64,000 bases of DNA. Origin: an uncultured Actinomycetes bacterium (GTDB taxonomy: Bacteria; Actinomycetota; Thermoleophilia; UBA2241). Shown here piece after piece: positions 30,202-34,644 of the stretch. Each line of letters starts with the position of its first letter. The stretch's first letter is position 1. The notes beneath the pieces are model-generated. The model did no database searches. It was not told the DNA's origin and saw only the letters and a list, made by a program, of their open reading frames with translations. Both the position numbers and the translations under genes were made by a program. The DNA lies in NCBI GenBank assembly GCA_963767005.1, contig CAVYCN010000002.1:32001-96000 (forward strand). Direction: 5' to 3'.

Positions 30202-32541
30202 ATGAGCGGCACCGATCGCGAGGCGCGCGCGGCGCGCTCGGCCGTGGCCGAGGCGCTCCTGCGTGGCCTGAACGAGCCGCAGCGCGAGGCCGTCGAGCAT
30301 TTCGAGGGGCCGCTCCTCATCCTGGCCGGCGCCGGCTCGGGCAAGACGCGCGTGCTCGCCCACCGTGTCGCCTACCTCATCAAGGTGCGCCGCGTGCGTC
30401 CCGACGAGGTACTCGCCATCACCTTCACGAACAAGGCGGCGGGCGAGATGCGCGAGCGCATCGGCGCCCTGGTCGGCCCGATGGTGCGCGTCATGTGGGT
30501 GTCGACCTTCCACTCCATGTGCGCCCGCATCCTGCGGCGCGAGGCCGAACGGCTCGGCTACCGGCCGGGCTTTTCGATCTACGACGCGGACGACGCCAAG
30601 CGCCTGGTCAAGCGCTGCCTGGCCGAGCTCGACCTCGACGACAAGCGCTTCACGCCCGACGCCGTGGCCCGGGTCATCTCCGACGCCAAGAACCGCCTGC
30701 AGGACCCGGTCGCCTTCCGCGAGCAGCTCGGCCGCGGCCATTTCAACCGCGCGACGGCCGATGTCTACGAGCTCTACGAGAAGAAGCTCGTGGAGATGAG
30801 CGCCATGGACTTCGACGACCTGCTCATGAAGATGGTGAACCTGCTCGAGATCTGTCCCGACCGCCTCGAACACTATCGCCGCACGTTCCGCTTCATCACG
30901 GTCGACGAGTATCAGGACACGAACCACGCTCAGTACCGCATCGCCAACCTTCTGGCCGGCGAGCGCGGCAACCTGGCGGTCGTCGGCGACGACGACCAGT
31001 CGATCTACTCGTGGCGCGGCGCCGACATCCGCAACATCCTCGAGTTCGAGCGCGACCACCCCGACGCCAAGGTGATCCGCCTCGAGCAGAACTACCGCTC
31101 GACGACGAGCATCCTCGACGTGGCCAACGCCGTGGTGTCGAACAACCGCCGGCGCAAGGGCAAGCGGCTGTGGACCGCGCGCGGCACCGGCCGGCCGGTG
31201 CGCGTGGCCGAGGTCGCCGACGAGCACGCCGAGGCGCGTTTCGTGGCAAGCGAGGTGCGCCGCGTGCTCGACGAGGGCGTCGGGGGCGAGGGGCAGGGCG
31301 ACGCCCTGCCCCTCGCCCCGCGCGACATCGCCGTGCTCTACCGCACGAACGCCCAGTCGCGCGTGCTCGAGGAGGAGTTCGGGCGCTACGCGATCGCCTA
31401 CCAGGTCATCGGCGGCACCCGCTTCTACGAGCGCGCCGAGGTGAAGGACGCGCTCGCCTACCTCGCCGTGGTCGCCAACCCGGCCGACGAGCAGCGGTTG
31501 CTGCGCATCGTGAACACGCCGCGCCGCGGCCTGGGCCAGACGACGATGGCGCGCCTGCAGAACGAGGCCCTGACGACGGGAGAGACCCTGTGGAGCGTGA
31601 TCGAGCGCGCCGACGACGTGCCGGGGCTGACGGCGGCCGCGCAGGTCTCGCTCGCGTCGCTGCGCGCGCTGATCGACACCTGGCGCGCGCTCTCGCCGCA
31701 GCTCACCTCGGTGGCCGCCTTCGTGCGCCGCGTGCTCGACGAGAGCGGCTACTCGGCCATGCTCGCGGCTCAGAACACGCTCGAGGCCGAGGGTCGCGTC
31801 GAGAACCTCGAGGAGCTCGTCGGCGTGGCGGCCGAATACGACCAGCGCACCGAGGAGCGCACGCTCGACGGCTTTCTGCAGGAGATCTCGCTGTACTCCG
31901 ACGTCGACGCCATGGCCGACACCAGCGAGCTCATCACCTTCATGACGCTGCACAACGCCAAGGGCCTCGAGTTTCCCGTCGTGTTCATCACCGGCATGGA
32001 GGAGGGGGTGTTCCCGCACCAGCGTGCGCTCGACGAGCAGAACCTCGAGGAGGAGCGCCGCCTGGCGTACGTCGGCATCACCCGCGCCATGGACCGGCTC
32101 TACCTGCTCCACGCGCGCGCCCGCACCCTGTGGGGCGGCAGCATGTACGGCCTGCCCTCGCGCTTTCTGACCGAGATCCCTGCCGACCTCGTCGAGGTCA
32201 CTCGCGAGGCCGGGCCCGCCTACGGTGGCGGCTGGTCGGGCGGCGGCGCACGTCGCGGCCGGGAGCGGGGCGGCTGGAGCGACCGCGACGAGTGGCGTGA
32301 GCGCGACGACGAGGGCATCGCCGGTTCGGGACGGCGCATCACGGGCCTGGAGGACAGGTCGGCGGGCGCCGTGGTCGAGCAGTTCTTCGCGCCCGGCGAC
32401 CGGGTGCTGCACGCCACGCTCGGCGAGGGCACCGTGACGGCCGCCGAGGAGAGCGGCATCATCGTGGTGCGCTTCGAGAACGACGGCTCGGAGCGTCGGC
32501 TGATGGCGACCATCGCGCCGCTGCGCAAGCTGCGCGCCTGA
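30202..32541 (+). CDS. pcrA: ATP-dependent DNA helicase PcrA/UvrD
   Basis: AGAGSGKT, TFTNKAA, VDEYQD, GDDDQSIY, QNYRS, HNAKGLEF, EERRLAYVGITRA, C-terminal Tudor-like domain. Confidence 0.95.
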   Translation: MSGTDREARAARSAVAEALLRGLNEPQREAVEHFEGPLLILAGAGSGKTRVLAHRVAYLIKVRRVRPDEVLAITFTNKAAGEMRERIGALVGPMVRVMWVSTFHSMCARILRREAERLGYRPGFSIYDADDAKRLVKRCLAELDLDDKRFTPDAVARVISDAKNRLQDPVAFREQLGRGHFNRATADVYELYEKKLVEMSAMDFDDLLMKMVNLLEICPDRLEHYRRTFRFITVDEYQDTNHAQYRIANLLAGERGNLAVVGDDDQSIYSWRGADIRNILEFERDHPDAKVIRLEQNYRSTTSILDVANAVVSNNRRRKGKRLWTARGTGRPVRVAEVADEHAEARFVASEVRRVLDEGVGGEGQGDALPLAPRDIAVLYRTNAQSRVLEEEFGRYAIAYQVIGGTRFYERAEVKDALAYLAVVANPADEQRLLRIVNTPRRGLGQTTMARLQNEALTTGETLWSVIERADDVPGLTAAAQVSLASLRALIDTWRALSPQLTSVAAFVRRVLDESGYSAMLAAQNTLEAEGRVENLEELVGVAAEYDQRTEERTLDGFLQEISLYSDVDAMADTSELITFMTLHNAKGLEFPVVFITGMEEGVFPHQRALDEQNLEEERRLAYVGITRAMDRLYLLHARARTLWGGSMYGLPSRFLTEIPADLVEVTREAGPAYGGGWSGGGARRGRERGGWSDRDEWRERDDEGIAGSGRRITGLEDRSAGAVVEQFFAPGDRVLHATLGEGTVTAAEESGIIVVRFENDGSERRLMATIAPLRKLRA

Positions 32542-32576: not shown

Positions 32577-33203
32577 TCAGGGGCCGCTGCCGGCGTCGTA
32601 GACCAGCCAGCGTCCGCCGGCGTGCCGCAGGCACATGAAGACCAGGGTCTCGCCGTCGTTCCAAGCCGACACTGAGCTCGGCCGGATGTCGATCGTCATG
32701 GTGAACTCGAGCGTGGTGAGCGCCGGCGGCGCGGGGTCGACCTGACGCACGTACGACACGACGCGCGCGCGCTCGATGCCGAAATAGGCGGCGGCGCGGC
32801 CGCCGCGGACGGCGGCGGCGCAGGTGGAGTCGGACGTGACCACCGCGAGCAGCCCGGCGTAGCGGTGCTCGTCGATCAGCCGCCAGTAGCGCGTCGCCGC
32901 GCGCAGCGCACCGGCGGGGACGGGGCCCGACGTGACGACGGCGCCGGGCGCGGGCGCGGTGGCGCCGGCGCCGGGCGCGCCGGGCGACGTGACGCCCGGC
33001 GTGGGGGAGGCGACCACGAGGTTCGCCGGCGAGCCGCAGGCGGCGAGCCACGTGGCGGGGGCGCAGGCTGCGAGGGCGGCCGCCGCAACGACGGCCGCCG
33101 CGAGCGCGACGCTGGCGACGCCGGCGCCGCGTGCGCGGCGCCGGCGCGTAAGCACGGCGCCGCGGCCGCGGTACGGCGCCGGTGCTGGAGATGCCTTGCT
33201 CAT
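32577..33203 (-). CDS. Putative lipoprotein, DUF4829-like
   Basis: LAAC lipobox-like motifs, Pro/Ala linker, C-terminal WNDGETLVFMCLR..GGRWLV. GGAGG RBS. Confidence 0.55.
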   Translation of the reverse strand: MSKASPAPAPYRGRGAVLTRRRRARGAGVASVALAAAVVAAAALAACAPATWLAACGSPANLVVASPTPGVTSPGAPGAGATAPAPGAVVTSGPVPAGALRAATRYWRLIDEHRYAGLLAVVTSDSTCAAAVRGGRAAAYFGIERARVVSYVRQVDPAPPALTTLEFTMTIDIRPSSVSAWNDGETLVFMCLRHAGGRWLVYDAGSGP

Positions 33204-33380
33204 GCGGTCCTCCCGGGGACGGTCGGGCGATGCGCCAAACCCCACCACAGCGGCCCCGCGCTGTACAGGATGACAATGTCCGGCCCGCGCGCTTGCTGCG
33301 CGTCCTGCGCCGCAGAATGTTCGATTGTGTTGGCCGCTGTGAGCGGAAAGCGTGCGGCGCTCGTCGTCGAGCTGGGAGAC

Positions 33381-33429
33381 AAACGAAAATAAATGCACGA
33401 TTGACCACACATTCGCGCAGGGCTACAAT
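33381..33429 (+). promoter_or_regulatory. Strong sigma-A promoter with UP-like A-tract
   Basis: AAACGAAAATAAAT (33381-33394), TTGACC (33401-33406)-N17-TACAAT (33424-33429). Confidence 0.8.
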
Positions 33430-33435
33430 GTGGGT

Positions 33436-33745
33436 CGTCGAGCACGCTTGGCTGTCGGCCCCGTCGCGGTGAGCGCGGGACGATCGAAGCGCGCGAGCGG
33501 CGGACGCGAGTGGGATGTACTCGTACGACGCGGTTGCTTGCAGGATCTGTGCGAGCAGGATGTTCACGCGTCCGCCGAGCGCGATCGTCGCCCGGGACCA
33601 CCCGGGACTGCGGCGCGCCGACGCGAAAGAGTCCGCGGCAAGACTCGTTCTCCCCCCGAACGAGCCGAGCCCCCCTCGGGCCGCGGATGTCACGAGGGCC
33701 GGGGCCGGAGGCGCACCAGCGCCGACCCCCCGGCCCTCGTCTTGT
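33436..33745 (+). ncRNA. Putative ~310-nt structured RNA: Ms1/6S-like long hairpin domain plus 6C-like double C-loop domain
   Basis: Nested helices 33454-59/33617-22, 33462-70/33607-15, 33479-86/33582-89, 33498-508/33567-77, 33535-42/33550-57. Junction 33632-39/33680-87 encloses two C-rich-loop hairpins. Own promoter and terminator. Confidence 0.7.
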
Positions 33746-33746
33746 T
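33692..33746 (+). terminator. Intrinsic terminator-like hairpin
   Basis: ACGAGGGCCGGGG (33692-704) / CCCCGGCCCTCGT (33728-740), followed by CTTGTT. Confidence 0.7.
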
Positions 33747-33867
33747 CCACGATCCCAGCGCCGGCGCCCGGCCCGCGGCGTAGTAGAGTTGCGCTGCGCC
33801 CACCCCGGGCCACGCGCGTGGGCCACTCCGTCGCCCGCACGCCGCAAACGACCAGGAGGGTCCGTTC

Positions 33868-34644
33868 ATGGCAGTCGAGGTCAGTCGCGACGGCGCCGTC
33901 GCCGTCGTCACGGTCGCTCGTCCCGAGGTGCTGAACGCGCTGAACTCGGCGACCAACGAGGAGCTGCTGCGCGTCGCCGGCGACCTCGGCCGCGACCACG
34001 AGGTCCGCGCCGTCGTTCTGACCGGCGCCGGCGACAAGGCCTTCGTGGCCGGCGCCGACATCAAGGAGTTCCGCGGCATGAGCCCCGAGGAGGCGCGCCA
34101 GTCGTCGTGGCTCGGGCGCCAGGCGATGGCCGCGATCGGGGCCGCCCCGCAGCCCTGGATCGCCGCCGTCAACGGCTTCGCCCTGGGCGGCGGCTGCGAG
34201 CTCGCCCTCGCCTGCGACATCCGCTTCGCCGCCGAGAACGCCCGCTTCGGGCAGCCCGAGGTCACCCTCGGCATCACGCCGGGCTGGGGCGGCACCCAGC
34301 GTCTGCCGCGCGAGGTCGGCAACGGCTGGGCCTCGTACCTGTGCCTGAGCGGCCGCCTGATCGACGCGGCTGAGGCGCTGCGCATCGGCCTCGTGCAGCG
34401 CGTGGTCGCGCGCGACGAGCTCATGCCGGCGGCGCTCGAGCTGGCCGCCGAGATCGCCGCGCGGCCGCCGCTCGCCGTGCGCTACATCAAGTCGCAGATC
34501 CACTACGCCCTGAGCGTCGACATCGAGGCCGGTCACGAGATCGAGCGCGACCTCTTCGCCCTGACGTTCGCCAGCGAGGATCGCGCCGAGGGCATGGACG
34601 CCTTCCTCGAGAAGCGCGCGCCGCGCGGGTTCGAAGGCCGTTAG
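33868..34644 (+). CDS. Enoyl-CoA hydratase (crotonase family)
   Basis: AFVAGADI, NGFALGGGCELALACD, FGQPE, PGWGGTQRL. AGGAGG RBS. Confidence 0.92.
   Translation: MAVEVSRDGAVAVVTVARPEVLNALNSATNEELLRVAGDLGRDHEVRAVVLTGAGDKAFVAGADIKEFRGMSPEEARQSSWLGRQAMAAIGAAPQPWIAAVNGFALGGGCELALACDIRFAAENARFGQPEVTLGITPGWGGTQRLPREVGNGWASYLCLSGRLIDAAEALRIGLVQRVVARDELMPAALELAAEIAARPPLAVRYIKSQIHYALSVDIEAGHEIERDLFALTFASEDRAEGMDAFLEKRAPRGFEGR

Follow-up and report, generated by a model that had tools for sequence, protein, structure and literature searches.

Does the non-coding DNA upstream of the enoyl-CoA hydratase (crotonase) gene ech in this uncultured actinobacterium encode an RNA and, if it does, to which family would that RNA belong and how might it act? 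The source genome is 3.4 Mb long with 71% GC, and the window, that is, the whole stretch of 64,000 nucleotides analysed here, corresponds to C2:32001-96000. The original prediction placed in a 660-bp gap between pcrA and the crotonase gene an unannotated RNA of about 310 nt with its own promoter, in which an Ms1/6S-like domain was joined to a 6C-like domain. The crotonase side of this description is right, but on the other side pcrA is separated from the RNA by a divergent ORF. The order is pcrA (+), a divergent hypothetical ORF (-), a gap of 664 nt with the RNA and ech (+). The pcrA/uvrD helicase gene occupies 30202-32541 on the forward strand (Pfam UvrD-helicase, UvrD_C and Tudor), and ech occupies 33868-34644, also on the forward strand (Pfam ECH_1). 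The ORF between them (32577-33203, reverse strand) encodes 208 aa from an ATG at 33203 and has no Pfam match. Its residues from about 93 to 208 are kept in 9 of 10 related genome loci, its Atlas look-alikes are hypothetical proteins, mostly from Actinomycetota, and its N-terminus, by reading, looks lipoprotein-like. A trehalose phosphatase lies one gene beyond the immediate neighbours of the RNA locus. A further element, at 33245-33277 on the reverse strand, can be seen by eye in most loci of the genus. It lies outside the RNA gene and is also present in two other genera without the RNA, and it is likely to be the promoter or operator of the divergent ORF.

The comparative evidence comes from relatives of the source genome. 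In BLAST searches the element was found at 75-95% identity in 10 of the 11 other genomes of the genus, the one without a match being 56% complete. In homologous intergenic regions, which the original prediction had suggested collecting, the structured element is thus kept at a single locus in 11 of the 12 genomes of the genus, and in all 11 it lies upstream of ech. A motif scan added 17 metagenome loci. We searched for homologues with two covariance models, one per domain; the C-loop model gives more than 90 bits at all 17 loci, and the core model more than 85 bits at 16 of them. The loose contig motif pattern yielded 2 true loci among 120 matches and covered 10 of 64 parts. Altogether 28 loci were examined, 26 of full length and 2 cut at contig ends; after removal of 8 duplicates, 18 distinct copies remained. 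No ORF start or length is common to these 18 copies, so the check for a conserved translated ORF speaks for an RNA. A mobile or repeated element was also considered and rejected, as the source genome has a single copy. Phages and viral contigs gave no match to the element and plasmids only two chance matches of 34 nt.

Outside the genus the picture changes. The core model has no match in 77 genomes from other genera of the family or in 147 genomes of the class outside the genus (the two sets overlap), and the C-loop model has only matches of 20-24 bits, in 4 of the 77 and 1 of the 147 genomes, none of them a full homologue. Only 27-50 candidates per genome, out of several thousand, were scored in these searches, which may therefore have overlooked distant homologues. 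The other 10 genera of the family supplied 20 regions lying downstream of pcrA, and in these neither model exceeds 21 bits. In 12 of these 20 regions ech follows; among the 11 gaps displayed from other genera, ech is only about 70-130 nt from pcrA in 6, and 3 have the divergent ORF but lack the RNA. Because the pcrA-ech gaps of other genera are without the RNA, its gene was likely gained at this site within the genus or else lost in other genera. One locus of genus g11 (L080:3280-3400, G021) has, between the divergent ORF and the ech promoter, a hairpin resembling the RNA terminator, with the RNA absent; the terminator may predate the RNA gene, or the hairpin may be a remnant of it. A different gap of about 330 nt separates pcrA and ech at a locus of genus g8 (G018, L078:3717-4047), where the sequence after a TATAAT folds strongly and possibly represents a leader or another RNA.

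A strong promoter was claimed for the RNA, and a near-consensus promoter sequence is indeed present. The sigma-70-type promoter TTGACC-N17-TACAAT at 33401-33429 (forward strand) is the sole such site in the 1.6 kb scanned, compared to 0.0 +/- 0.2 sites in shuffles, and the RNA is predicted to start near 33436. It is one of 47 sites in the genome with at least 10 of 12 promoter matches, and its upstream 25 nt are the second most A/T-rich among them (16 of 25). Both hexamers are kept in all 11 genomes, and the promoter was found in 15 of the 17 metagenome loci, the remaining 2 ending at contig edges. On the same strand, the A-tract at 33381-33393, largely kept in the 11 genomes, is likely an UP element, judging by its sequence; the stretch 33381-33400 has 30% GC versus 71% for the genome. 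Farther upstream a conserved 14-nt motif (33317-33330, forward strand) is the best motif match in each of the 18 distinct loci and precedes the -35 element by 79, 82-84 or 94 nt. It is likely a regulator site. An inverted look-alike with 9-13 of 14 identical positions is present in the promoter spacer (33407-33420), and the two are possibly paired operator sites. A genome scan with the upstream motif for a regulon gave nothing clear.

The region 33430-33750 folds at z = -4.3, and the 18 copies agree on a consensus of four parts: a 5' hairpin, a 92-nt core, a C-loop three-way junction and a terminator. This consensus is paired in 91% of cells, compared to 34-43% for slid controls, and its covariation score is 0.138 versus at most 0.047 in those controls. 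The covariation check proposed for the RNA thus favours the structure by the score but not by the count of both-sided changes, which occur in 13 of 96 consensus pairs and reach 14 in one slid control. Since, in addition, the structure was derived from the same alignment that was used to score covariation, we regard covariation support as modest. Single-sided changes in helices are mostly from G-C to G-U, which fits the forward strand.

The four parts, all on the forward strand, differ considerably in conservation. Among the 11 genomes, the C-loop module is on average 90% identical and the core 81%, followed by the terminator (74%), the 5' hairpin (65%) and the variable part (56%). For comparison, 6S reaches 92.5%, four-fold sites of ech reach 74%, and the flanking spacers, when gaps are counted, only 23-27%. 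In other words, the C-loop module is the best-conserved part of the RNA and comes close to 6S. The 5' hairpin (33441-33495, consensus pairs 33445-33461 with 33477-33491) is paired in 88% of cells, has 3 of 14 pairs altered on both sides, and forms at least 9 pairs in 13 of 18 single-sequence ensembles, competing for shared bases with long-range pairings. A hairpin predicted earlier at 33437-33452 appears in folds of the source genome but is absent from the consensus. The conserved core (33492-33583) comprises a closing stem, a small hairpin with a GGGA-type loop, a purine-rich internal loop and an apical hairpin. Its helices are 91-100% paired, and its register is ambiguous in that the MFE and centroid structures differ. 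It is followed by a variable side hairpin (33591-33606), which lies in the 56% identical region, and by an A-rich linker (33623-33630), which is A-rich in the alignment, predicted to be mostly unpaired and conceivable as a processing site.

The two C-rich loops and the 13-bp terminator stem described before are both present. The C-loop module (33631-33688) consists of a 9-bp closing stem and two hairpins with loops at 33651-33657 and 33670-33674. Its helices are 94-100% paired and almost invariant, and for this reason give little covariation. In all 18 copies the module is more stable than its shuffles (mean z -3.5), whereas for the 5' domain stability is unremarkable (mean z -0.9). The C-runs of both loops are invariant in 18 of 18 copies. 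Loop 1 is predicted to be unpaired at 0.81-1.0 in every copy, and loop 2 at 0.81 or more in 16 copies and at about 0.5 in the other 2. The terminator-like hairpin (33692-33740; -42.5 kcal/mol) is 90% paired, with 3 of 17 pairs altered on both sides. It has a weak tail: the scan accepts no U-run after the 13-bp stem.

Is this RNA a member of a known family? The expectation that it would fall outside them agrees with an Rfam 15 scan of the 64-kb window, which produced no match over cut-off. Within 32900-34100 there are 8 chance-level Rfam matches, none of them on the 5' or C-loop domains, and 33430-33630 has no match at E up to 10. When 33620-33705, a query stretch chosen after the fact, was compared with 4227 Rfam families at E up to 10, the sole match was 6C (17.7 bits, E 1.2), for which the gathering cut-off is 47 bits (RF01066). 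In this match the UCCCCCC loop of the model is aligned with loop 1. The 6C-like domain of the original prediction thus holds as far as the two C-loop hairpins and the alignment of loop 1 are concerned, but not at the level of the cut-off. The RNA locus is not among the matches listed in genome-wide 6C searches, in which 150 of 1434 and 47 of about 1300 candidates were scored. The better matches of the 6C model within the taxonomic family, at 26-41 bits and all below cut-off, are at other loci, in 12 of 89 genomes. For the proposed Ms1/6S-like domain the outcome is negative. Neither the Ms1 nor the 6S model matches the RNA locus; the Ms1 model is described as missing distant members (PMC9130861), and the Ms1 gene neighbourhood is absent here as well. 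Canonical 6S is found over cut-off at other loci in 12 of 12 genus genomes, and a profile of these 6S genes matches none of the 18 RNA copies. Other candidates were also rejected. A permuted tmRNA was considered because ARAGORN called none, and a normal tmRNA turned out to be elsewhere in the genome. SRP RNA and RNase P RNA have no match at the locus, and each is found above cut-off elsewhere. A CsrB/Rsm-type sponge, suggested by GGA motifs, was dismissed since a search of the genome, whose completeness by markers is 100%, found no CsrA (PF02599). Literature searches at the level of titles and abstracts yielded no description of the RNA; Ms1-candidate lists and motif catalogues in supplements could bear on whether it is new. 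We conclude that the conserved element is real and likely an RNA gene, apparently uncatalogued and not a member of 6C, Ms1 or 6S.

While searching for relatives we came across several other elements. A separate dispersed family in the genus, to which many of the better 6C-model matches belong, consists of short (about 70-90 nt) two-C-loop elements with 28-41 bits on the 6C model (cut-off 47). The source genome has two copies, both on the reverse strand (C4:226110-226233 and C18:111837-111968), other loci being L229, L230, L234, L235, L238, L240-L242 and L245-L247, and one genome has 7 sub-threshold 6C matches. Most copies follow a common upstream stretch with repeated TTAA and end in a U-run; they are likely multi-copy 6C-like small RNAs. 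Sister genus g10 (L231, L233, L236/L244) has a second 6C-like two-hairpin element, present as a tandem pair in one genome. G072 carries two copies (L056, L060) of an element of about 150 nt with terminal inverted repeats and a repeated pyrimidine-rich C-run, scoring 21-22 bits on the C-loop model. Elsewhere in the source genome there is a second smpB copy in two overlapping frames (C6:244079-244503, reverse strand), the intact gene being on C15. A pyrrolysyl-tRNA synthetase domain above cut-off (298 bits; C3:236183-236905, forward strand) and a tRNA with a CUA anticodon called as tRNA-Pyl (C3:242986-243058, reverse strand) suggest that this actinobacterium likely uses pyrrolysine; a tRNA-Sec was called, too.

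How might the RNA act? By analogy with 6C, the explanation that we prefer, and to which we assign about an even chance, is that of an independent small-RNA gene whose 3' C-loops pair in trans with G-rich ribosome-binding sites and thereby repress translation. The RNA would be transcribed from about 33436 to 33745, presumably under a regulator acting at the upstream 14-nt motif. Its 3' module would keep both C-rich loops open, so that other mRNAs could be bound at their G-rich ribosome-binding sites, in the case of loop 1 through pairing of its invariant CUCCCCCC with GGGGGGAG, and their translation blocked. The 190-nt 5' part (hairpin plus core) would likely serve as a protein-binding or stabilising domain, and cleavage at the A-rich linker may remove it, leaving a 6C-sized RNA of about 115 nt. 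The model for such action is 6C itself, described as repressing mRNAs through C-rich loops that pair with G-rich leaders without a chaperone (PMC6486639).

In line with this explanation, GGGGGGAG lies 2-12 nt before a coding-like start in 16 of its 71 genomic copies, compared to 0 of 71 for a C-rich control. Among the 16 candidate genes are six for transport proteins and 3 without a Pfam match; others include those for a transketolase, a DeoR regulator, an MTTB methyltransferase and a UbiE-family methyltransferase. As targets they should be taken as leads only, and G-rich ribosome-binding sites are expected even without a C-loop RNA. Just before the transketolase gene, at C2:166440-166475, there is an inverted repeat that holds both the majority loop-1 sequence of the homologues and, over the ribosome-binding site, the loop-1 complement. 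Two individual genes were considered as targets and set aside. The gene dnaB is a validated 6C target; in the source genome it ranks among the 25 best loop-1 candidates out of 2266 crude genes, but a strong G-rich site is present in only 2 of the 9 genus genomes inspected, so that it is not a conserved target. The other, ech, ranks 1552 of 2266. The short 6C-like elements elsewhere in the genus could serve the same G-rich sites. It is worth pointing out that the trans-pairing model leaves the conservation of the 5' core unexplained.

Two alternatives come next in probability. According to the first, which we find unlikely, a long bulged 5' hairpin binds RNA polymerase as Ms1, 6S and CoRP do and is joined to an mRNA-pairing C-loop domain, possibly with switching between rod and hairpin. 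The size of about 310 nt and the strong promoter recall Ms1, reported to be 304 nt long (PMC4191392). All five nested helices of the predicted rod are fully complementary in the source genome, and the rod is within about 2 kcal/mol of the best fold. Across the 18 homologues, four outer pairs are kept in most copies, and rod covariation (0.173) is higher than in all 500 shuffles, a control that ignores kinship. Nonetheless, the outer helices (33454-59/33617-22, 33462-70/33607-15 and 33479-86/33582-89) are paired in only 66% of cells. Long-range pairing outweighs the 5' hairpin in 9 of 18 single-sequence ensembles, clearly in 4, but the rod is nearly absent in 8. Rod duplexes are no better than shuffles, the mean z values being +0.23 and -0.45 compared to -1.65 for the 5' hairpin and -2.86 for the core, and cognate pairs of the outer helices are no better than cross-species pairs. 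The predicted long hairpin of about 170 nt is therefore not the conserved fold. The rod is not a requirement common to all copies, and the 5' hairpin with the 92-nt core fits the homologues better; a two-state 5' domain may, according to the folding models, exist in part of the genus without being a shared requirement. Also against polymerase binding are the short conserved stem of 92 nt, the canonical 6S in every genus genome, the lack of a 6S or Ms1 match and the missing flanking gene for an HAD-IB hydrolase (PMC9130861). What keeps the idea open is the precedent of CoRP, described as a genus-restricted polymerase-binding RNA that escaped structure and synteny searches (PMC11077062).

An extension that merges this alternative with our preferred one is, in our opinion, quite unlikely: one RNA with two levels of control, in which a 5' domain alternates between a local hairpin and a rod that binds polymerase while the C-loop module silences G-rich mRNAs, all beside a canonical 6S. 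If true, such a switchable rod and C-loop RNA would represent a third type among the actinobacterial RNAs that bind polymerase, and one fused to a base-pairing regulator.

The second of the two alternatives, a compact fold, seems improbable as well. Here the C-loops would pair internally with G-rich loops of the core; the RNA would act as a scaffold that binds a protein or ligand, and it would not target mRNAs. The GGG of the core hairpin loop, the GG of the internal loop and the C-runs are all invariant in the 18 copies, and invariant junction bases are typical of tertiary folds. On the other hand, each contact allows only 3-4 pairs, and invariant columns have no power to reveal covariation; the folding tools used here cover nested pairings, not pseudoknots.

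Could the RNA instead be a cis-acting leader of ech, a riboswitch or attenuator that permits read-through when its second C-loop hairpin pairs with the terminator's 5' strand? Its position upstream of ech in matching orientation at all genus loci, the resemblance of the core to a junction-based aptamer and the weak terminator tail would suit such a leader. However, at 33784-33789 (forward strand) there is a TAGAGT, likely ech's own -10 element as judged by sequence, which is kept in 22 of 22 genus loci displayed, two of them repeats. In these loci it lies about 55-85 nt before the ech start and 86-262 nt past the C-loop module. Where a genus lacks the RNA, TAGA[G/C]T is still present, in 9 of 11 gaps. 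The spacer toward ech is unconserved, ranging from 33 to 173 nt among the 11 genomes. Moreover, the duplexes that C-loop and terminator could form do not surpass shuffled ones (mean z +0.03 and -1.04, with none of 18 below -2). With ech having its own -10 element, the RNA is likely not its leader, and together with the chance-level pairing of C-loop and terminator this favours an independent gene; we therefore consider the leader very unlikely. Finally, it is highly improbable that one transcript gives rise to two independent RNAs, a 5' RNA and a 6C-like 3' RNA: the mostly unpaired A-rich linker, the differing conservation and stability of the domains and the Streptomyces arrangement with 6C and Ms1 as separate genes flanking one gene (PMC8539372) would fit, but the region has a single promoter as far as found, and neither domain was found alone, save at one locus cut at a contig end.

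What would the preferred reading, a trans-acting C-loop RNA, mean more broadly? A well-bounded putative RNA family, absent from Rfam 15, is added for one actinobacterial genus. The results suggest that C-loop regulation of the 6C type extends beyond the Mycobacterium-Streptomyces-Corynebacterium group and that it can be joined to a larger structured domain. The narrow taxonomic range limits the weight of the finding; its importance would grow considerably should the 5' domain bind RNA polymerase or a ligand. The C-loop module is short and portable, so its action is testable in a laboratory host.

The RNA can be compared with several known systems. Like RNAIII and RsaE of Firmicutes, it is a multi-domain RNA with C-rich loops that could pair with ribosome-binding sites, but those belong to another phylum, the RNA here has no Rfam match to them and it encodes no peptide. 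With 6S RNA (RF00013) it has in common a rod with internal loops that can be drawn in the source genome and some relatives, whereas 6S binds the RNA polymerase holoenzyme and templates pRNA, and its rod spans about 160-200 nt and mimics an open promoter; the conserved stem here has only 92 nt, and there is neither a model match nor sequence similarity to the 6S of the genus. Ms1 (RF02566) is closer in its length of about 300 nt, its sigma-A-type promoter and its organisation as a single-gene unit with terminal hairpins. Yet Ms1, which binds the RNA polymerase core, is described as defined by a long hairpin, with a bubble and adjacent stems as the most conserved part (PMC4191392), and also by the flanking HAD hydrolase gene (HAD-IB; PMC9130861). 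The RNA here has neither the conserved long hairpin with a central bubble nor that gene, and its most conserved part is an added C-loop module. CoRP of Corynebacterium is likewise genus-restricted, long, structured and missed by family models, but it has 516 nt, is flanked by tRNA genes, comes from a genus without known 6S or Ms1 and was shown by experiment to bind RNA polymerase. The nearest counterpart is 6C RNA (RF01066; B11/scr3558). Differences from it include the score, 17.7 bits where the cut-off is 47, the three-way junction into which its shorter stems are closed, different neighbours, the 190-nt 5' extension and the presence of a closer 6C-like family elsewhere in the genus. Furthermore, 6C is a stand-alone RNA of about 75-95 nt (93 nt in PMC6486639), whereas the sole promoter found here lies about 200 nt upstream of the module. 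Nevertheless, the defining feature of 6C, two stem-loops with conserved cytosine runs, is found in this RNA too, and the two share adjacent C-rich-loop hairpins, an actinobacterial host and a promoter and terminator of their own.
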